Shown here piece by piece: positions 9,712-34,237 of a DNA stretch of 43,369 bases. Position 1 is the stretch's first letter, and each line of letters starts with the position of its first letter. Source of the DNA: a virus (taxonomy: Duplodnaviria > Caudoviricetes); the IMG/VR virus record IMGVR_UViG_3300010359_000004, positions 1 through 43,369 of that record. One strand, 5' to 3'. The position numbers and the translations under genes were made by a program. The notes under the pieces were generated by a model. The model worked only from the letters and a program-made list of their open reading frames with translations. It was not told where the DNA came from and did not search any database.

Positions 9712-9840
9712 TTATCCCCTCCCCACCCCACCCCGCCGGGGTTTCGACATCCTTACCTTACCAGTCTTGCTGACGCTCGCAGTAGGCTTAGTTTTAACCT
9801 TCTTTATTCGGACCGTCGGCCCTTTGCTCCATCCTGCCAT
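9712..9840 (-). CDS. Small basic protein (42 aa, absent from ORF track)
   Basis: MAGWSKGPTVRIKKVKTKPTASVSKTGKVRMSKPRRGGVGRG; AGGGGA SD. Confidence 0.5.
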   Translation of the reverse strand: MAGWSKGPTVRIKKVKTKPTASVSKTGKVRMSKPRRGGVGRG

Positions 9841-9999: not shown

Positions 10000-10380
10000 C
10001 TAGGATGCCTTGGCCGCTTGCGGCTCTGATGGCGCATCAACGGCTGGCACGGGCGGAGGAGGCGGTGCTTTCGTTGCTTCGAGCATAGCTTTGAAGTCGG
10101 GCTTGTGCTCGAGCGGCGGATCCATCTTGCCGACGAGTGCGTCTATCTTGCTAACTGCATCGGCAAGATCTTTGGGCGCCGGTTCCTTCTTTGGCCCGGC
10201 GGCTATGGCGCTGCGAAGGCTATGAAGAATGTCGGCTATCAAGACCGGCGGAGCCGGTGGCAGGATCGAGTGCAAGAGTTCGGTTGCTTTCCTCACAACC
10301 TCATTTGCTGTTAGCTTCCCCTCCCCTCCTCCCCCCGCCCCCGCAGGTTGAGCTTCTGTTTTCACGTTCGTCGCCATCAT
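10000..10380 (-). CDS. Hypothetical protein
   Basis: 126 aa, Pro/Ala-rich; GGAGG SD. Confidence 0.65.
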   Translation of the reverse strand: MMATNVKTEAQPAGAGGGGEGKLTANEVVRKATELLHSILPPAPPVLIADILHSLRSAIAAGPKKEPAPKDLADAVSKIDALVGKMDPPLEHKPDFKAMLEATKAPPPPPVPAVDAPSEPQAAKAS

Positions 10381-11937: not shown

Positions 11938-11959
11938 CGAGTTTTCAGGATGTGAAAAG
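11938..11959 (-). promoter_or_regulatory. Dyad motif, copy 2
   Basis: Exact match; the 29-bp span 11938-11966 is the exact reverse complement of 26365-26393. Confidence 0.75.
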
Positions 11960-13009: not shown

Positions 13010-13630
13010 CTATCCGCTACACAGAATAGTTAGCACCACCTCGAGATCACTACCAGCAGAGAATCGGCTGATCACGGTTGAATGCATACGCCAGCCGGCC
13101 TCGTCGATAGGACCAGAATCTAACATGTGCACCTTCGTTATATCTGTCGGGTTTGTTACGGTATTGGTTACACCGCCAGATATGACAATCTGGCCCGGAT
13201 CACAACTGAGCGATAAATCGACTATCGTCCCTGGACCTGGGCGTACGATAATGCCAGTGGTAGTCGTTTTAGTTACCATCGCGCCCATAGAACCCGTAGG
13301 GCCAGTGGGGCCTGTAGAGCCAGTAGTACCAGGACGACCAGCCATGCCTGGCGGCCCAGGTTCACCAATCGGGCCAGTAGGACCTTGCGGTCCAGAGAGG
13401 CCGATCGGACCAGGAGGGCCAGATAACCCGGTAGCCCCCGCTGGCCCCGCCTCCCCGCCCCGCCCCGGCGCGCCAGTAGGGCCGATCGGACCAATAGGGC
13501 CAGTGGGACCAGGAGGTCCCCGCTTCTTGGCAATCTTGAGAGGTACCTTGAGACATTCAGAAGTTGCCTCCGACGCCGATAGTAGGGAACACACTACGAT
13601 CGCGCAAGCCGCCACCAGTGTTGAGCGCAT
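13010..13630 (-). CDS. Secreted collagen-like protein
   Basis: Start at ATG 13630 gives a signal-peptide-like [22 protein letters not shown], then ~26 Gly-X-Y triplets and a C-terminal beta domain ([12 protein letters not shown]...ILC). Confidence 0.75.
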
Positions 13631-17492: not shown

Positions 17493-17538
17493 TGGTAGAT
17501 CCCTTGGATCTTGGCTGGCATGAGATTTCAGCAGATGA
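17493..17538 (+). repeat. Left arm of ~46-bp inverted repeat
   Basis: TGGTAGATCCCTTGGATCTTGGCTGGC-ATGA-GATTTCAGC-AGATGA is complementary to 17819-17864. Confidence 0.85.
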
Positions 17539-17564
17539 AATCTAAAAGAAGGAAAACAACGATC

Positions 17565-17810
17565 ATGCCAAAGAAGATCACAATCGAGGCGCACACCAAG
17601 TCTGGAGAACGGGGATTCGTAGAGAAAGAATATCCGCTCTCACTGGACGAAGCTGTCAAGATGTACGGAGAGCTGGAGGTTTTCAAGGGTTTCTTGCGGG
17701 ATCGCGTCATCATCGATCAGCGGGAAGCTCGGCCGGTTGCCACGAAGGAGGGTGAGGTGGAGAAGCCCAAGAAGCGGCAGTCTGTCTTCGATAGGTTGCA
17801 GAGCAGCTAA
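17565..17810 (+). CDS. Early hypothetical protein, paralogue of 26465-26752
   Basis: 81 aa from ATG 17565; PLSLDEAVKMYGELEVFKGFLRDRVIIDQREAR. Confidence 0.7.
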   Translation: MPKKITIEAHTKSGERGFVEKEYPLSLDEAVKMYGELEVFKGFLRDRVIIDQREARPVATKEGEVEKPKKRQSVFDRLQSS

Positions 17811-17866: not shown

Positions 17867-18018
17867 GGTAGATTAGACTGTAGCCGGTCTAGCTAACCGG
17901 AAATCTATCGTACACGGAAAGTGGGGAGCGATAAGCTAAGATCCAACACCGTGTGGGCTAATCAGATAGACAGGATCGCATGGCGAGGCGATCATTCTAA
18001 GATAAGCTCTAATCTACC
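17867..18018 (+). ncRNA. Unrecognised structured RNA, copy 1
   Basis: Closed by GGTAGATTAGA/TCTAATCTACC. Shares conserved blocks and covarying stems with 30084-30258. Confidence 0.72.
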
Positions 18019-18045: not shown

Positions 18046-18333
18046 ATGGCAGACCGGACGATGAGCTATGAAGAAATCTTGGCTCGCCGTGAGAAACGTA
18101 AACGCGAAGAAATCGCGATGGCAACTCAGCGGCCCAAGATTCCAAACTCAAAACCGGAAGCGCTAACGATCATGATTCTTCAATGGTGCATAGATAGCAT
18201 CTATGAAGAATGGCGTGCGCGAGAATTAGAGAAAGCGCAAGCCACAAAGATTGTTCTGCCGCCCAAAGGACCGCCAAGGCGTCGGGGTGGTAGAAAGAAT
18301 ACAGTGTTCGAGCAGCTTGGTATAAAGCCGTGA
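18046..18333 (+). CDS. Early hypothetical basic protein
   Basis: AAGGAG SD before ATG 18046; C-terminal RKNTVFEQLGIKP. Confidence 0.65.
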   Translation: MADRTMSYEEILARREKRKREEIAMATQRPKIPNSKPEALTIMILQWCIDSIYEEWRARELEKAQATKIVLPPKGPPRRRGGRKNTVFEQLGIKP

Positions 18334-20372: not shown

Positions 20373-20394
20373 CTTTTCACATCATGAAAACTCG
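20373..20394 (+). promoter_or_regulatory. Dyad motif, copy 3 (one mismatch)
   Basis: CTTTTCACATCATGAAAACTCG, right after a stop codon. Confidence 0.7.
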
Positions 20395-22238: not shown

Positions 22239-22489
22239 CAGCTCTCGCCCTGTTGTCGCTGAGCGGGGTGGGGTGGGGCGGTGGGGCGGCAATTGTCATC
22301 CCGCCTCGAGGTCACGATAACATCACTCTCGGTGACCCTGCAGGTCCATCGTTCGGCTTCCGTGGTGACTCAGACACGACGATCGTCGTGACTCCGCACG
22401 GAAACGCAACCGATTTTGACACCGGCCACGGCAACCACATCACCGTCCAGCCAGATGGCAACACAACCTTTACCTTCGGAGACGACTAA
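22220..22489 (+). CDS. Small secreted protein
   Basis: Signal-peptide-like MRQVCLAALALLSLSGVGWG and a Gly/Thr/Asp-rich beta-repeat body. Confidence 0.55.
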   Translation: MRQVCLAALALLSLSGVGWGGGAAIVIPPRGHDNITLGDPAGPSFGFRGDSDTTIVVTPHGNATDFDTGHGNHITVQPDGNTTFTFGDD

Positions 22490-26393: not shown

Positions 26394-26464
26394 TAGAACC
26401 TGCATACAGGTGTAAGGCAACACGCGCGGGGTATGCACCGCGTCCAACAATGAAAGGTTCAGCA

Positions 26465-26752
26465 ATGCCCACACTCGAGATTCCGGAGAAGGACAAGGCG
26501 GAGGTTCGCACCTGCCCGATCGAGGTTTCCACCAAGGTCAACGGAGAGAAGAAGGAGACCACCATCGAGCGCCCCCTCCCGTATCGCCTCGTCGATGCGA
26601 TCGCCATCTACGGCGACAAGGAGGTGTTCAAGCGGTTCATCCAGTCGCTGGTGATCTCGCTCCAGGCGGAGGCCCGCAGCGAGCTGCAGGCCGAGTCCGG
26701 CGAGGCCGCTCCTCGCGTCCGTGCCAAGTACCTGGAGGAGTTGGGGCTCTGA
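26465..26752 (+). CDS. Hypothetical protein, paralogue of 17565-17810
   Basis: PYRLVDAIAIYGDKEVFKRFIQSLVISLQAEAR; visibly G/C-rich third codon positions. Confidence 0.75.
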   Translation: MPTLEIPEKDKAEVRTCPIEVSTKVNGEKKETTIERPLPYRLVDAIAIYGDKEVFKRFIQSLVISLQAEARSELQAESGEAAPRVRAKYLEELGL

Positions 26753-26814: not shown

Positions 26815-26988
26815 ATGTCAACCAAGTCCATCACTGAGATGACTGACGAGGAGTTACAAGCTGAACTCGAGATGCTTGACTCCATCCAAGTTGCCCCATC
26901 GCCGATACCGAAGGCTCCGAAACCCGTCCGTGAAGTGAAGGCCAAGAAGTCACGAGCTTCGTGGAAGGACGCACTCGGAATAGAGTAA
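26815..26988 (+). CDS. Hypothetical protein (57 aa, absent from ORF track)
   Basis: GGAGGT SD; MSTKSITEMTDEELQAELEML...KKSRASWKDALGIE. Confidence 0.65.
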   Translation: MSTKSITEMTDEELQAELEMLDSIQVAPSPIPKAPKPVREVKAKKSRASWKDALGIE

Positions 26989-27164
26989 TGAGCGTTCACG
27001 AACAAGGCGAGCTGTTCGACGAGAATTGTATCATCTGCCAAAGGCAGATGGATACCTATAACGTCGAGAAGACAATTCGCCAACGCTTATACCGAGAGTG
27101 GCGCGAGGCATGGCTCCGCGACAACGACCGGCGTTGTGCGCGGATCCTAGGAGAATTCAAACCT

Positions 27165-27533
27165 ATGCCGACTGAGTTCCATCCGTGCGCCGATCGGGTT
27201 CTCATCCGACCCGATACTGAAGGCGGCGAAAAGCGAACGGCCTCGGGGCTGATTATCATTCCGGATATCGGCAAGACGAGGCCCACAACCGGGATAGTTG
27301 TCGCTATAGGACCCGACTGTCATGAGACGTTCGACGTAGGCGACAAGGTTCTGTTCGGAAAGTACGCCGGAGCTGACATTAAGTTGAACGAAGAGGAGAT
27401 GACTATCGTTCGTCAGGAGGACATCCTCGGCGTAATAACAGAGGAAGCCGATGAAGGTACTATCGACAAAGGCTCTAGTGAACCTGATCCTCCAACTGAA
27501 CTGGCAGGGTCACGTGGAGCTTCCGATCGGTGA
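27165..27533 (+). CDS. groES: Co-chaperonin GroES (possible longer form from ATG 26988)
   Basis: HPCADRVLI, EKRTASGLIIIPD, GIVVAIGP, VGDKVLFGKYAG, EDILGVI. Confidence 0.9.
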   Translation: MPTEFHPCADRVLIRPDTEGGEKRTASGLIIIPDIGKTRPTTGIVVAIGPDCHETFDVGDKVLFGKYAGADIKLNEEEMTIVRQEDILGVITEEADEGTIDKGSSEPDPPTELAGSRGASDR

Positions 27534-29464: not shown

Positions 29465-29544
29465 CCGCCGGCGATGCCGGCATGGAGGAACGTATGAACG
29501 GGCTAATGGTGGCCCTACAACGGCTCCTCGAAAGGAAGGTCCAA

Positions 29545-29925
29545 GTGGCGTTCATCAACGTGAACCTGAACGACGTGGAGGATCAGAGTGGCGACATTCA
29601 CCCTGAAGGCAGGACGAACCTCAGGATCGTCGGCTCCGATCTCCGCGAGACAAAGGCCAAGGACTCGCAGTACATCGCCTGGCGGCTGGAGGTGATCGAC
29701 TCCGAGAACAAGAGGCCCGTGTGGCTGCAGAATTCCCTCAAGCCGCAGGCACTCTGGAATCTCAAGAACCTCTATAAGGCGTGCATGGGCTCCGAGTTCA
29801 ATCCCGAGGGCTTCGACACCACGGACCTGCACGGCTGTGAGTTCGGCGGAGTGCTCACCATCGAGGAGTACAACGGTGAGAAGCAGAACCGCTGCGAGGG
29901 ACCGTACAAGGCCGTCGCGAAATGA
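29545..29925 (+). CDS. Putative ssDNA-binding protein (DUF669-like)
   Basis: GTG 29545 with AAGGAAGG SD; P.G...L.I...YIAWRLEV...ALWNLK...DL.G...EEYNG..QN pattern. Confidence 0.7.
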   Translation: MAFINVNLNDVEDQSGDIHPEGRTNLRIVGSDLRETKAKDSQYIAWRLEVIDSENKRPVWLQNSLKPQALWNLKNLYKACMGSEFNPEGFDTTDLHGCEFGGVLTIEEYNGEKQNRCEGPYKAVAK

Positions 29926-30095
29926 CAAGATCCGACATCGATCAACTTATCACCAACGCGGCTCAAGGTATCAACCGGGTTCTCTGCGAGCCTGAGCTGG
30001 AGACGCCTGAGGAAGTTCAGCTTGCGTATCTAGCGTCCATTGCTAGCTCATTGCTGGCAATCGCAGGTCTCATGTTCGAATCCGGTAAGAAGTAG
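29922..30095 (+). CDS. Hypothetical protein (57 aa, absent from ORF track)
   Basis: ATGA overlap; MTRSDIDQLITNAAQGINRV...SIASSLLAIAGLMFESGKK. Confidence 0.55.
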   Translation: MTRSDIDQLITNAAQGINRVLCEPELETPEEVQLAYLASIASSLLAIAGLMFESGKK

Positions 30096-30258
30096 CCGGC
30101 TTGGCCAGCCGGAAATCCATCGTGCTTACGTAGTAATGGAGGGAAGAGCTGTTGTGAGACAGTGAGACTTCCCTGTGAAGTGAACCGTAGTGGGCTAATC
30201 AGATGGACGCGGGAGCATGGCGAGGCTCCCCTTCACTATGACTGAGATCATACTTACC
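30084..30258 (+). ncRNA. Unrecognised structured RNA, copy 2
   Basis: Closed by GGTAAG/CTTACC; same conserved blocks and stems as 17867-18018, with compensatory changes. Confidence 0.72.
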
Positions 30259-30321: not shown

Positions 30322-31779
30322 ATGCCGAAGGTAGAGATATCCAAGATCACCGTCGGACCTCGTGCCCGAGTTGATTACGGTGATCTAGATAATCTAGCTA
30401 GCTCTATGAGCCGGCTGGGTCAGCTACAGCCCATCATCCTCGATGGTGATGGTGATCTCGTCGCGGGAGAGCGCCGGCTCAAGGCAGCCATGATGCTGGG
30501 CTGGCCCGAGATAGAAGCGACGTACATGGCGGATCTGGACGAGATCGGTAGAAAGGAGGTCGAGCTCGAAGAGAATCTGCGGCGCAAAGAATTCACCTGG
30601 CCCGAAGAAGTTCTCGCGCTCGAGAAGCTGTACAACCTGAAGATTGAACGGTACGGCACCCGGACCCCCGGCACGGATGGCAGCGAAGGTTTCGGAGTCA
30701 AAGACGCGGTGGAACAGTTCGAACGCAGCGCCGGTTCCATTAGCCAAGATCTTCAGCTCGCCAAGGGACTGCGCCAGTTTCCCAAACTCGCTTTCGAGAA
30801 GACGAAGAGCGCAGCGTTTAAGCAATGGCGCCGCATGGTCAGCCATCAAATCAGAGAGGAACAAGCCCGCCGCCGCAATGCCGAGATCGGACACTCGGCG
30901 GAGGAGGAAGAGTCCGCGACCCTGGACAACATCGTCCCGCCGGCTGGTGTGAAGACGGTAACTCCGCCACCTGTCCATCCGTCTGCGCCAGTAGAGCCCC
31001 TCGTGAAAAAGGCTGGCTTCAAGGGGTATGGGCTGATGTATCGCGGTGATGCTGAGTTCGTAATCCGCCACATGGATCCCGCCATCATCGACTGTATCGT
31101 CACCGATCCTCCATATGCTCTGTCGATGTTCAAGGGGGAGGGCCAGATAACGTCTGGCCGTCGCCTCGCGGAGCACGAGGGCGGGATGTACGACGACGAT
31201 CCACATAAGGTCCTCGATAAGTTCGACAAGGTGATGGAGCAATGTGCACGGGTACTAAAGCTCAACGGCCATGCTTACATCTTCTTTCACCACAATTGGT
31301 ACGATGAGATCCATGAGATTCTCATACGTCATTTTGGAGAGGATGCTGTGGAATCGACACCGATTGTGTGGATCAAGAACACATCGGGTATCGGTGATCC
31401 AAATGAGCGGTGGGTTTACAGTTACGAGCCTTTCTTCTTTGTCAACCGTGGCCGTCACTTGGTCAAGCCGCAGGGTCACAATTACATCATCACGAACACT
31501 GTTCCGCCGGGTCAGAAGACACATCCAACTGAGAAACCAACGATGCTACTCCGGCAAATAATCCAAGCATCATGCGTGAAAGGAGAGGTGGTTATGGATC
31601 CATACGCCGGCTCCGGCTCAACGCTGGTGGCGGCTCTCGAAGTAGGTTGCAAGATCTATGGGATGGAGCTCGAAGATGTATACTACCAGCGGATCGTGGA
31701 CCGGCTAGCCCTGACGATCGGAACTATCGAGCAGGGCACTGCCCCGCCGGAGGCGGTGGATGATAGTAGTTCCGCCTGA
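30322..31779 (+). CDS. ParB-N-terminal domain fused to amino-DNA methyltransferase (N6A/N4C, beta class)
   Basis: GQLQPI, LVAGERRLKA and ENLRR (ParB); TDPPY, HPTEKP and DPYAGSGST (methyltransferase). Confidence 0.9.
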   Translation: MPKVEISKITVGPRARVDYGDLDNLASSMSRLGQLQPIILDGDGDLVAGERRLKAAMMLGWPEIEATYMADLDEIGRKEVELEENLRRKEFTWPEEVLALEKLYNLKIERYGTRTPGTDGSEGFGVKDAVEQFERSAGSISQDLQLAKGLRQFPKLAFEKTKSAAFKQWRRMVSHQIREEQARRRNAEIGHSAEEEESATLDNIVPPAGVKTVTPPPVHPSAPVEPLVKKAGFKGYGLMYRGDAEFVIRHMDPAIIDCIVTDPPYALSMFKGEGQITSGRRLAEHEGGMYDDDPHKVLDKFDKVMEQCARVLKLNGHAYIFFHHNWYDEIHEILIRHFGEDAVESTPIVWIKNTSGIGDPNERWVYSYEPFFFVNRGRHLVKPQGHNYIITNTVPPGQKTHPTEKPTMLLRQIIQASCVKGEVVMDPYAGSGSTLVAALEVGCKIYGMELEDVYYQRIVDRLALTIGTIEQGTAPPEAVDDSSSA

Positions 31780-34237
31780 TCCCCCTCTGGGGCAAGCAAA
31801 GCTGGCGATAGTTGGTGCCCGGCCTGGCAAGGAGGAAGCCAGGCTCGGGCATCCTTTCGTCGGCGGCTCGGGCTCGGAACTCTGGAAGTTATTGAGCCAC
31901 CACGGAGTTTCGCGTACTCAATGCCTCGTAACAAACGCGGTCCTGACGTTTGATCCTGAACGAGCCTTGCCTACACCAGTAGAAATTCGAGATGCATTGC
32001 CCCGCCTTAAAGCTGAACTGGAAAAGTATCCTGCCAACGTGATCCTTGCGTTAGGTAATGAGGCCCTGCAAGCTGTGTGCGGCCTCCGCGGGATAGATAG
32101 TTGGAGAGGATCTATCATCGAATCTACGCTGTTGCCCGGCCGCAAAGTTGTAGCCGCGTGGCATCCAGCCAACATTCTACGAACGTACGAGCGCCGATAC
32201 ATTCTAGACGCTGATCTCCGCAGGGCCGTCGCGCAGGCGGCGTTCCCTGAGATCCGCAGGCCAACGAGGAATTTCATAATAGATCCCCCGTTAGACCAAT
32301 GCGTAGATTTTCTGCGCACCATAGGTGACGAGGCGTGCGTGGACATCGAATGCAGCAGGTTGAATCATCACATCTGGTGCGTCGGTGTTGGAGATATGCG
32401 AAGCAGCCGCGACATCATCTGCATCCCATTCACCCGCGGTAGCATGAACGTTAGCGAGCGGGTAGTAGTCGTGAGGGAACTGCAGAAGATGTTTGACCGC
32501 TGCGGCATCGTAGGTCAGAACGTTGGATTCGACAAGTGGGTATTGACCAAGTTCGGCTTTAGGAACATCCGCATAGTTTTCGACACAATGCTGGCCCATC
32601 ATTTGTTGTGGCCAGAGGCCGGCATGAAGTTGAAGACAGATGAGGGCAAGGATAACTTCTCCGGCGGTCATGATCTAGGATTCATTTCTAGCTGCTACAC
32701 GGAGGAGCCGTATTACAAACATGAGGGGCACCTCGGCGAAGATGCGCCACATGCGTGGACCGAACACTGGATCTACAACTGCAAGGATGTCGCTGTAACG
32801 ATCGAGTCTGCTGTGGGCCTCCGACAAGAGCTCAAAGAGTTCGGGCAAGCCGACTACTATCATACCCACACGAATCAGATGATTGACCCGGTGTGGCGTA
32901 TGCAGGGCAACGGCCTTGAGATCGACTCCGACGCTCTCAAGGACAGGAAACAAAGGCTCGAGCTCGAGAATAAGGTCCTCCAAGGACGACTCAAGCGTGC
33001 CGTCGGTTTTGATTGCAACGTGCGATCTACCGTTCATCTTAGGTATCTGCTCCACGATAAGTTGCATCTGCCAATCAAGAAGCGCACTAAGAAGGGCGGT
33101 GCACCAGCGACGGACGAAGATACACTTCGCACCCTGGCCTACGGATCGCCCTATGCAGACCTGTTCAAGCTCATCTTGGATATACGGGAGCGACGTACTC
33201 TGCTCTCCGGCTTCATGCAATTGGAAACATCGCAAGATGGTCGCTATAGGGCAGCTTACCTGATCCATGGTACGGATTCGGGCCGGCTATCCAGTCGTGC
33301 GCCCAAAGATCTGGATGGCCGACTCGGCCCCCAACTCCAGAATGTGCCAGTGCACTTCCGGAACGTCTTCCGCGCTAGTGCGGGTTGCGGTCTGATGGGA
33401 GCAGATCTCCGCCGTGCCGAGGCGATGTTTGTTGGCTACGACTCGGCGGACGCTGGGTTGATCCATGCTTTCGAGACTCAAGGATTTGATCTGTATGTGG
33501 ATCTAGGCGAGCACGTTCTAGGTTTAAAGTTTGCAGAGCAGGCCAAAGAAACGGCCAAGCTCTATCGCGATTGCTTCAAGCAAGTTTGCCATGCTAGCAA
33601 CTATGGGATGGGACCCGACAAACTCATCACTGTCCTCCGACTCAAAGGTATAGACATCGAGGACATCAGTGTTCGGGGTATCCATCAGCCAAAGCGTAAA
33701 GCTACGTATTTCCTCGAGGGCTACCACGAGAGATTCCCCGCCGTCCGTGGCAGGTGGCAAGCGCGGTTGCGTGAGGAAATACGAACTAAGCGGACATTGT
33801 ACGACGCCCTCGGTAGGCGTCGGTTCTTCATGGGCCGAATGGATGATGCTCTGTTCCGAATCGGATATTCGTATAGGCCACAGAGCAGTGTGGTAGGAAT
33901 CACAAACCTGGCATTTCGCCGGTTGGATACGTGGGGGTGGAGGATGGTCCTCCAGGTCCACGATTTCGTCGGGATCGAGTACCCATTGGAACGGGAGCGG
34001 GACTGCTACGCGGCGCTTCAGGCGGCGTTTGACGTTCCACTTACCCTCAACGGTCGTACATTCTTGATCCCCGTAGACATAAAGGCAGGGCCAAACTGGC
34101 GAGATATGAAACCCGTGGAGATTGCTGCGGATGAGTTGGTTGACCCAGTACATGGAATTCACTCACCAACACGAATCCCCGGCGATGTTTCATCTCTGGA
34201 GCGGTCTGACTATTATATCGGCCTTACTAGGTCGTAA
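31760..34237 (+). CDS. polA: Family A DNA polymerase with N-terminal uracil-DNA glycosylase-like domain and 3'-5' exonuclease
   Basis: UDG: PFVGGSG, ALGNEAL, WHPA. Exo: DIE, NVGFD, YNCKD. Pol: SGRLSS, LQNVP, ADLRRAE, K...HASNYG, QVHD. Confidence 0.92.
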   Translation: MIVVPPDPPLGQAKLAIVGARPGKEEARLGHPFVGGSGSELWKLLSHHGVSRTQCLVTNAVLTFDPERALPTPVEIRDALPRLKAELEKYPANVILALGNEALQAVCGLRGIDSWRGSIIESTLLPGRKVVAAWHPANILRTYERRYILDADLRRAVAQAAFPEIRRPTRNFIIDPPLDQCVDFLRTIGDEACVDIECSRLNHHIWCVGVGDMRSSRDIICIPFTRGSMNVSERVVVVRELQKMFDRCGIVGQNVGFDKWVLTKFGFRNIRIVFDTMLAHHLLWPEAGMKLKTDEGKDNFSGGHDLGFISSCYTEEPYYKHEGHLGEDAPHAWTEHWIYNCKDVAVTIESAVGLRQELKEFGQADYYHTHTNQMIDPVWRMQGNGLEIDSDALKDRKQRLELENKVLQGRLKRAVGFDCNVRSTVHLRYLLHDKLHLPIKKRTKKGGAPATDEDTLRTLAYGSPYADLFKLILDIRERRTLLSGFMQLETSQDGRYRAAYLIHGTDSGRLSSRAPKDLDGRLGPQLQNVPVHFRNVFRASAGCGLMGADLRRAEAMFVGYDSADAGLIHAFETQGFDLYVDLGEHVLGLKFAEQAKETAKLYRDCFKQVCHASNYGMGPDKLITVLRLKGIDIEDISVRGIHQPKRKATYFLEGYHERFPAVRGRWQARLREEIRTKRTLYDALGRRRFFMGRMDDALFRIGYSYRPQSSVVGITNLAFRRLDTWGWRMVLQVHDFVGIEYPLERERDCYAALQAAFDVPLTLNGRTFLIPVDIKAGPNWRDMKPVEIAADELVDPVHGIHSPTRIPGDVSSLERSDYYIGLTRS

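Follow-up and report, generated by a model that had tools for sequence, protein, structure and literature searches.

Two copies of an uncatalogued structured RNA in a podovirus-like phage and a family of relatives at the gene junctions of its clade

Background

The question raised by this locus is what a pair of diverged, apparently structured sequences is doing between genes of a phage, and whether it belongs to any RNA family already described. The window analysed here is a whole virus record (IMGVR_UViG_3300010359_000004, below G000; 43,369 nt, 91% complete by CheckV), whose gene content points to a podovirus-like tailed phage. Its minus strand encodes an SU10-type portal and adaptor, capsid, terminase and a collagen-like fibre, and its plus strand an exonuclease, a Sak4-like annealing protein, a ParB-methyltransferase, a family A polymerase with a UDG domain, a primase and GroES. 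Both copies of the motif lie between early or middle genes of the plus strand, and the nearest phage records show 22-41% identity.

Two copies of one motif

The four blocks that the original prediction had described as shared, in the same order, by both loci were borne out by sequence comparison, and the stems of both copies (P1, P2, P4 and the closing stems) were found where it had placed them (Table 1). From 5' to 3' the core consists of UAG, the P1 hairpin, AAA, P2, GU, the P3 arm with a kink-turn, J3/2, the returning strand P2' and the P4 hairpin. A 17-nt word shared by the copies has two exact occurrences in the window, against an expectation of 0.17 even when three mismatches are allowed, and a structure descriptor built from P1, AAA, P2, GU, GGC and P4 finds exactly two window sites; 30 shuffled windows give it no match, and over 387 loci (1.24 Mb) it picks out solely the seven known copies and their duplicates. 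No third copy was found in the window, where the next-best covariance-model score is 7.4 bits.

The folding energy of copy 1 stands out (z -4.54, 0 of 200 shuffles as low), while that of copy 2 is modest (z -1.80, 7 of 200 shuffles); the bare cores, set against shuffles, do as well or better on the minus strand as on the plus strand in all seven copies, under an energy model that is nested-only and so blind to the pseudoknot and the kink-turn. The closing stem of copy 1 is possibly an RNase III-type stem. In copy 2 a 57-codon ORF (29922-30095) terminates at the motif's UAG.

Table 1. Coordinates of the two motif copies, of the genes beside them, and of the second structured element of related phages
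Feature	Position	Strand	Remarks
Copy 1, conserved core	17881..17993	+	113 nt; covariance model 123.2 bits; structure descriptor
Copy 1 with closing stem	17867..18018	+	stem 17867-17877/18008-18018, extendable to ~14 bp; duplex -18.8 kcal/mol
Copy 1, P1 hairpin	17884..17900	+	5 bp, 17884-17888/17896-17900; 7-nt loop 17889-17895 (predicted pseudoknot partner 17956-17960)
Copy 1, P2	17904-17909/17965-17970	+	
Copy 1, G-U between P2 and P3	17910..17911	+	faces pseudoknot strand; invariant 7/7; predicted cleavage site
Copy 1, variable arm	17912..17954	+	P3 (6 bp), internal loop, kink-turn, short distal hairpin
Copy 1, kink-turn	GA 17926-17927, bulge 17937-17939, GA 17940-17941	+	
Copy 1, J3/2	17955..17964	+	10 nt, 9 invariant; can pair with P1 loop or 5' UAGCC
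Copy 1, P4 hairpin	17974..17993	+	6 bp, 17974-17979/17988-17993; 8-nt loop, 7/8 loop positions invariant
Copy 2, conserved core	30093..30230	+	138 nt; covariance model 126.8 bits; structure descriptor
Copy 2 with closing stem	30084..30258	+	6 bp, 30084-30089/30253-30258
Copy 2, P1 stem	30096-30100/30108-30112	+	loop 30101-30107
Copy 2, P2	30116-30121/30202-30207	+	
Copy 2, invariant G-U	30122..30123	+	predicted cleavage site
Copy 2, variable arm	30124..30191	+	P3, AGUA/GAA internal loop (presumably loop-E-like), kink-turn, long distal hairpin
Copy 2, kink-turn	GA 30139-30140, bulge 30174-30176, GA 30177-30178	+	
Copy 2, P4 hairpin	30211..30230	+	stem 30211-30216/30225-30230
Gene upstream of copy 1	17565..17810	+	small hypothetical, no Pfam family; family F2 entry 17511-17810
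Gene downstream of copy 1	18046..18333	+	hypothetical, no Pfam family
Gene upstream of copy 2	29482..29925	+	DUF669-like (weak match, E 0.0046, under cut-off)
Gene downstream of copy 2	30322..31779	+	fusion of ParB-N and N6/N4 DNA methyltransferase
Second element, G002	L373:9338-9410		after DUF669-like gene
Second element, G003	L375:517-585		after DUF669-like gene
Second element, G004	L376:6708-6785	-	after DUF669-like gene
Second element, L364	L364:6068-6143		after DUF669-like gene
Second element, L365	L365:10480-10552		after DUF669-like gene

Distribution in related phages

A search of phage sequences for homologues, as the original prediction had proposed, yielded five further distinct copies (in G001, G002, G004, L294 and L326), all in related podovirus-like phages of about 45 kb, and these five independent homologues keep the stems. 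The copy of G001 was reached through terminase and polymerase searches; those of G002 and G004 were the two true members among the 119 loci of a pattern scan, and those of L294 and L326 were new among five true members of 37 pattern loci, the other three being L322, a repeat of G002, and L313 and L330, which are identical to the window's own copies and are excluded from the independent count. Another viral pattern scan gave 52 loci with three true members, none of them new, and two others gave no loci and 119 loci, respectively, none of the latter with the remaining motifs (chance level).

Among prokaryotes, a pattern scan of 185,579 bacterial and archaeal genomes gave 30 loci and no true member. 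The covariance model R1 found the motif in 0 of 151 genomes in each of three bacterial phyla (453 sampled genomes with only 21 candidates per genome scored; a weak negative), and in five more genomes it made no find (best E 0.078); BLAST of one copy against cultured phages and plasmids gave no real match. Exact-pattern scans miss diverged members. No description of the motif was found in the literature by full-text motif words and topic searches, the coverage of which takes in few subscription papers, nor was there a match in seven supplement files of a catalogue of viral structured RNAs (PMC10690425), whose files 1 and 2 may hold the motif.

All carriers belong to one phage clade, in which shared proteins are 22-95% identical. 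G001, G002 and G004 have a single copy each; the motif was not found in G003 (a complete record whose distance from the window is about that of G002 and G004; best score 9.6 bits) or in five fragments or distant records. Patchy presence within a single clade marks the family as accessory and, within reach of exact-pattern scans, narrow.

The L294 copy (L294:2448-2564) occupies the junction of copy 2, yet its arm, P1 and linker resemble copy 1 (BLAST match to 17881-17989), which suggests that copies have been exchanged between sites.

Conserved stems and competing pairings

When the seven sequences are aligned to a model of 24 pairs, 167 of 168 stem cells pair, and eight of the 24 pairs show changes on both sides (4/6 in P2, 3/6 in P4 and 1/5 in P1), with G-U pairs kept or gained across the stems. 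None of 500 shuffles reaches the observed pairing, a comparison that draws on few sequences (seven) and in which related sequences can beat such shuffles, and slid controls were 26-49% paired; RNAalifold, unaided, recovers P1, P2 and P4. P3 has 6 bp in five copies and is bulged in two, and 45 of the 70 core columns of fixed length are invariant, many of them unpaired. The argument drawn earlier from two copies, that compensatory changes in the stems mark a selected RNA fold, is upheld by the five independent homologues, which keep the stems with two-sided changes. The two window copies represent a real, uncatalogued structured RNA family made of known modules.

Some details of the first description need correction. 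The word GGCUAA, said to be invariant, reads GGCUGA in four of the seven copies, and in the P4 loop, of which the same was said, G002 has the variant AAGGCGAG; strict invariance therefore holds for neither element. The terminal stem is present in both window copies but is not conserved in the family, where its partner, length and energy vary (-7.3 to -20.5 kcal/mol across copies).

The pseudoknot proposed between the P1 loop and GGCUAA is compatible with 34 of 35 cells; it has 5 bp, with six only in copy 2, and shows no two-sided change, the changes across the seven copies being one-sided only. An equally good rival pairing joins the invariant 5' UAGCC to the same J3/2 strand (35 of 35 cells paired), and a 4-bp pairing between the P1 and P4 loops could form in six of the seven copies. 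The pseudoknot between P1 loop and J3/2 is plausible as one of these models, and the P1-loop pattern Y-YRGCY-A would fit an H-type knot with AAA crossing P1.

The P1 loops of six copies contain a 6-nt palindrome (UAGCUA or UGGCCA), broken in G001, so that loop-loop dimers would be possible.

A kink-turn in the variable arm

The nested arm that had been predicted at the same position in each copy is there, and it is variable, but it is more than that: a canonical kink-turn (a stem, a 3-nt bulge, and G.A with A.G) can be drawn in all seven copies on the plus strand and in none on the minus strand. From 3 to 267 of 2000 arm shuffles, depending on the copy, reach the same score for the kink-turn, the consensus for which was taken from published abstracts. 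The arm also holds an AGUA/GAA internal loop in four of the seven copies (AGUA alone in five), which we take to be loop-E-like, and the loop past the kink-turn is variable, with 3-21 nt and without a conserved contact. The kink-turn is, on this modelling, a predicted new feature of all copies, and its occurrence on the plus strand only, together with the retained G-U pairs, indicates an RNA on the plus strand. Its 3n position is G in seven of seven; kink-turns of this kind fold in metal ions alone, protein-free (PMC4382518, in its available text), and the kink-turn of the motif is thus of a type that needs Mg2+ but no protein to fold.

Gene junctions and their alternative occupants

All seven copies are intergenic and run in the sense of the genes; between them they occupy five different junctions, whose downstream genes are unrelated. 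Window copy 2, G001 and L294 have the motif between the DUF669-like gene and the ParB-methyltransferase gene, with a small ORF between in the first two, and the remaining four copies are at junctions between hypothetical genes. The motif starts 0-19 nt past the upstream stop in six of the seven, and a ribosome-binding site follows at 5, 8, 9, 12, 42, 52 or 80 nt, thus at 5-12 nt in four. The window copies are not bracketed by promoter-like or terminator-like sites, promoter-like matches being at chance level, and no protein co-inherited with the motif was found among the relatives compared. The DUF669-like gene probably encodes a ssDNA-binding protein, judging from its location after the Sak4-like annealing gene.

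The UAG of the motif is an upstream-frame stop in three copies (in G004 not that of the main upstream gene), stands in frame behind a stop in three (in copy 1 in a distant secondary frame) and is out of frame in one. Stop-codon recoding as a general role was rejected, since these frame relations differ between copies.

Of particular interest is what the relatives carry in place of the motif. All five relatives that lack it after the DUF669-like gene have there a different long stem of -44 to -55 kcal/mol. This second structured element (Table 1) consists of a 14-19-bp outer stem, an inner hairpin with a C-run loop and then a C-rich strand; the stretches from G002-G004 had no Rfam match at gathering score, and the element may serve as an sRNA or mark a processing site. 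After gene family F9, the motif site of G002, a strong hairpin is present in three of three (G003, G004 and L365), a comparison that leaves out the window and G001, whose F9 genes end the gene arm. Ranked among the 70-nt segments that follow stop codons, the replacement stems come 1 of 25 in G002, 1 and 2 of 31 in G004 and 1 and 2 of 19 in L365, and more weakly 6 of 14 in L364; the G003 junctions (-29.8 and -40.4 kcal/mol) fall outside the ranked set.

Other occupants are of a different kind. At the copy-1 slot of G001 a 28-bp inverted repeat (-49.7 kcal/mol) encloses a 125-codon ORF (L239:7253-7627, minus strand), and at the motif site of G004 the genes F46 and F47 of L326 overlap. No terminal repeats or duplicated target were seen at the junctions read.

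Several further features of these genomes were noted along the way. The C-rich strand of the second element resembles an anti-Shine-Dalgarno sequence, and the 125-codon ORF of G001 has two CxxC pairs and a weak DnaJ zinc-finger likeness (E 0.096). The small genes of family F2 form a pair in the window (17511-17810, adjoining copy 1 upstream, and 26450-26752) and occur also in G001. The family A DNA polymerase (31760-34237) carries its uracil-DNA-glycosylase-like domain at the N-terminus, and the GroES co-chaperonin (26961-27533) is present in the window and G001 and not in G002-G004. A 20-nt sequence that contains an inverted repeat is present five times in the window (at 20375, 26374 and 35291 on the plus strand and at 11957 and 3739 on the minus strand), each time oriented as the local genes are, and G001 likewise has five; it is probably a promoter or operator of the phage. 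Coding-strand G runs, several of them intergenic, lie at ~22260-22290 (+) and at 9715-9737, 10312-10341 and 13432-13471 (where minus is the coding strand), and are possible quadruplex or binding sites.

Comparison with known RNA families

The Rfam check called for by the original prediction gave, with Rfam 15, no match in the window at the gathering threshold, none over either core at E <= 10 and none over the five homologue loci at E <= 5. Known ribozymes and other Rfam RNAs were found neither in the window nor in 112 kb of four relatives, and the motif therefore lacks the ribozyme-rich setting that is usual. That the motif is no tRNA, hammerhead or pistol, as had been supposed, agrees with the window's lack of tRNA and tmRNA genes (ARAGORN, 0 genes) and with the failure of the hammerhead core tests and of RF02679.

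Pistol ribozymes have an A-rich linker after P1, and so does the motif. In the available text of PMC6154101, the P1 loop of pistol is pseudoknotted to the P2/P3 junction, the G-U that joins P2 to P3 is the site of cleavage, and pistol is found near phage genes; in the motif the P1 loop is pairable with the junction of stacked P2/P3, there is a short-side G-U, and phage genes are near. The G-U that links P2 and P3 is invariant in all seven copies, but lies 5' of P3: in pistol the pseudoknot side comes first (G40-G42 before G53-U54), whereas the motif has G-U, then P3, then the pseudoknot strand. Where pistol has G40-C41-G42 after the pseudoknot strand the motif has AUCA, in seven of seven, and it differs also in a predicted pseudoknot of 5 bp rather than 6, in the extra P4 and kink-turned arm, and in being about twice as long. 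Membership in pistol was rejected, as RF02679 gives no match in the window (E <= 10) or in four relatives (E <= 1), the order of the parts is reversed and there is no G-C-G; a working analogy to pistol may nonetheless be kept.

In the case of the kink-turn riboswitches (SAM-I, lysine, c-di-GMP-II and T-box, as treated in the available text of PMC4316175), the likeness lies in the canonical kink-turn with 3n=G, the predicted loop pseudoknot and, in four of the seven copies, the loop-E-like AGUA/GAA in the kink-turn arm. The motif differs in having no conserved distal-loop contact, no expression platform and unrelated downstream genes, and with no Rfam match membership was rejected. The raiA motif (RF03072), as described in the available text of PMC10861870, is likewise an orphan among structured RNAs: it has pseudoknots, its variable arm contains an E-loop, and some of its short words look like those of the motif; it is chromosomal in Bacillota and Actinomycetota, and rare short forms exist, but its model has 209 positions against the 113-138 nt of the motif, and the raiA alignment rows compared pair differently. 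It too was rejected, RF03072 giving no match at E <= 10 with six candidates scored.

In hammerhead ribozymes GAAA flanks stem II; in the motif G-U-R-C stands in that slot, and CURAUCA and GURC are found in all seven copies. The J3/2 sequence CURAUCA, followed by a G-C-closed stem and a G, recalls CUGAnGA and stem II, also when the non-circular permutations in the available text of PMC10085705 are considered, but position 8 is C in seven of seven and position 5 is A in three. The core test having failed (CURAUCA/GURC in 7/7 against CUGAnGA/GAAA), membership was rejected here as well. RNase III-type intercistronic processing stems are known from phage operons, for example the early region of T7. 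The motif resembles these in its position just past stop codons, at sites occupied in relatives by long stems, and differs from them in its predicted tertiary fold with invariant unpaired bases and in having no long uninterrupted core duplex.

Possible functions

By analogy, and with more doubt than confidence, we put forward the reading that the motif is a cis-acting self-cleaving ribozyme of an undescribed class that would cut the polycistronic message between genes. The fuller version, a new class in which pistol-like parts are reordered and a kink-turned arm is added, in which a switchable 5' pairing might gate cleavage, and which is interchangeable with the processing stems that cut operons, is doubtful and lies on the unlikely side. 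Within the long early/middle transcript the motif would fold into a pseudoknotted, kinked RNA in which P1 and the pseudoknot of its loop with J3/2 stack and the AAA linker runs along P1. The scissile bond would be the invariant G-U facing the pseudoknot strand, and the active site may be made up of the invariant bases of J3/2 and the P4 loop. A cut there would fall 30 nt past the start of the UAG, so that the upstream gene would keep its stop codon (the motif's own UAG in window copy 2 and G001) and its message would end in the P1 hairpin, which would protect the 3' end just as the stems of the relatives would; the downstream gene would gain a new 5'-OH end, with a ribosome-binding site 5-12 nt past the motif in four of the seven copies.

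In keeping with self-cleavage are a core in which 45 of 70 fixed columns are invariant and 8 of 24 pairs have changed on both sides; the intergenic, gene-sense position of every copy, at five junctions with unrelated downstream genes and, in six of seven, within 0-19 nt of a stop; window copies with no promoter- or terminator-like site on either side; strong stems at two of its junctions in motif-free relatives (5/5 and 3/3); the pistol analogy in pseudoknot, G-U and phage setting (PMC6154101); G at 3n in all seven copies; and the lack of a co-inherited protein partner. The probability is lowered by the length of 113-138 nt, above the 50-80 nt that Eckert et al. (PMC10085705, available text) expect of self-cleavers, by the absence of known ribozymes from the window and from 112 kb of sequence from four relatives, and by the outcome in that same paper, where 0 of 10 non-hammerhead motif candidates tested cleaved. 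The available text of PMC4316175 names kink-turns in riboswitches and RNase P, and not in small nucleolytic ribozymes. Against the proposal, too, are the failed pistol and hammerhead core tests, the slots, which look equally like places for cargo (the G001 ORF in its 28-bp stem, the F46/F47 overlap in L326), the replacement at the DUF669-like junction, which is itself a conserved RNA, and the stem rank of 6/14 in L364, with both G003 junctions outside the rank test.

The same cargo-like slots would suit an accessory RNA gene acting in trans, or a transcript decoy, whose compact fold binds a host protein such as an L7Ae-family protein at the kink-turn or a defence protein that recognises structured RNA, some copies being released by RNase III stems; this we consider rather unlikely. 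The free position and patchy presence of the motif agree with it, as do the copy-1 slot, held by an ORF in a 28-bp stem in G001 and by the motif in a ~14-bp stem in the window, the copy-2 slot, which in five relatives holds a different, sRNA-like motif, and the fact that kink-turns are protein-binding sites (PMC4316175, available text; for OLE RNA, PMC9723947). Five of the seven copies, however, have no long clean closing stem, the motif has neither a promoter or terminator of its own nor a partner gene travelling with it, and 3n=G kink-turns fold protein-free (PMC4382518, available text). Unlikely in our judgement is a passive, xrRNA-like barrier that would stall host exoribonucleases and give neighbouring genes differential stability without catalysis: a start 0-19 nt from a stop codon in six of seven, the replacement of the relatives' strongest post-stop stems, a pseudoknot at the 5' edge and a 5' UAGCC that can pair into the core (35/35 cells) would all fit, but 45 invariant core positions, a kink-turn and a conserved P4 loop seem excessive for such a role. 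A barrier of this kind seems over-built because a plain stem serves the same sites in relatives, and a literature search for such barriers gave no phage precedent, only work on flaviviruses.

Two mutually exclusive pairings of J3/2, both conserved, and a third between the P1 and P4 loops (4 bp) in six of seven would fit a riboswitch-like cis regulator in which a small-ligand aptamer switches from the loop pseudoknot to the 5' UAGCC pairing and back; kink-turns are common in riboswitches (PMC4316175, available text), and a DNA methyltransferase gene lies downstream of three of the seven copies. We nevertheless hold this to be quite unlikely, with unrelated hypothetical genes downstream of the other four, five junctions and no consistent position, no common expression platform (the ribosome-binding site is 5-80 nt away and there is no terminator), a closing stem that covers the ribosome-binding site in L294 while leaving it free in both window copies, G001 and G002, and no match to any riboswitch in Rfam. 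Highly improbable, finally, is an element that acts only as DNA, whether as a hairpin signal in ssDNA or as a small mobile repeat. The motif does shift between junctions, one genome has it twice, its bare cores fold equally well on the minus strand and its P1 arms are palindromic; against this stand the gene-sense orientation in 7/7, the G-U pairs kept or gained, the kink-turn on the plus strand in 7/7 versus 0/7 on the minus strand, and the lack of terminal repeats or target duplication at the junctions read.

Significance

The known reach of the motif is narrow, at seven copies in one clade. To our knowledge only about ten classes of natural self-cleaving ribozyme have been described. If the RNA proves not to be self-cleaving, it would still be a phage RNA of riboswitch-level complexity, with pseudoknot, kink-turn and loop E, and a candidate decoy or ligand binder. 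In these phages an uncatalogued compact fold swaps with simple stems at the same junctions of related genomes, and this exchange amounts to a natural swap experiment.
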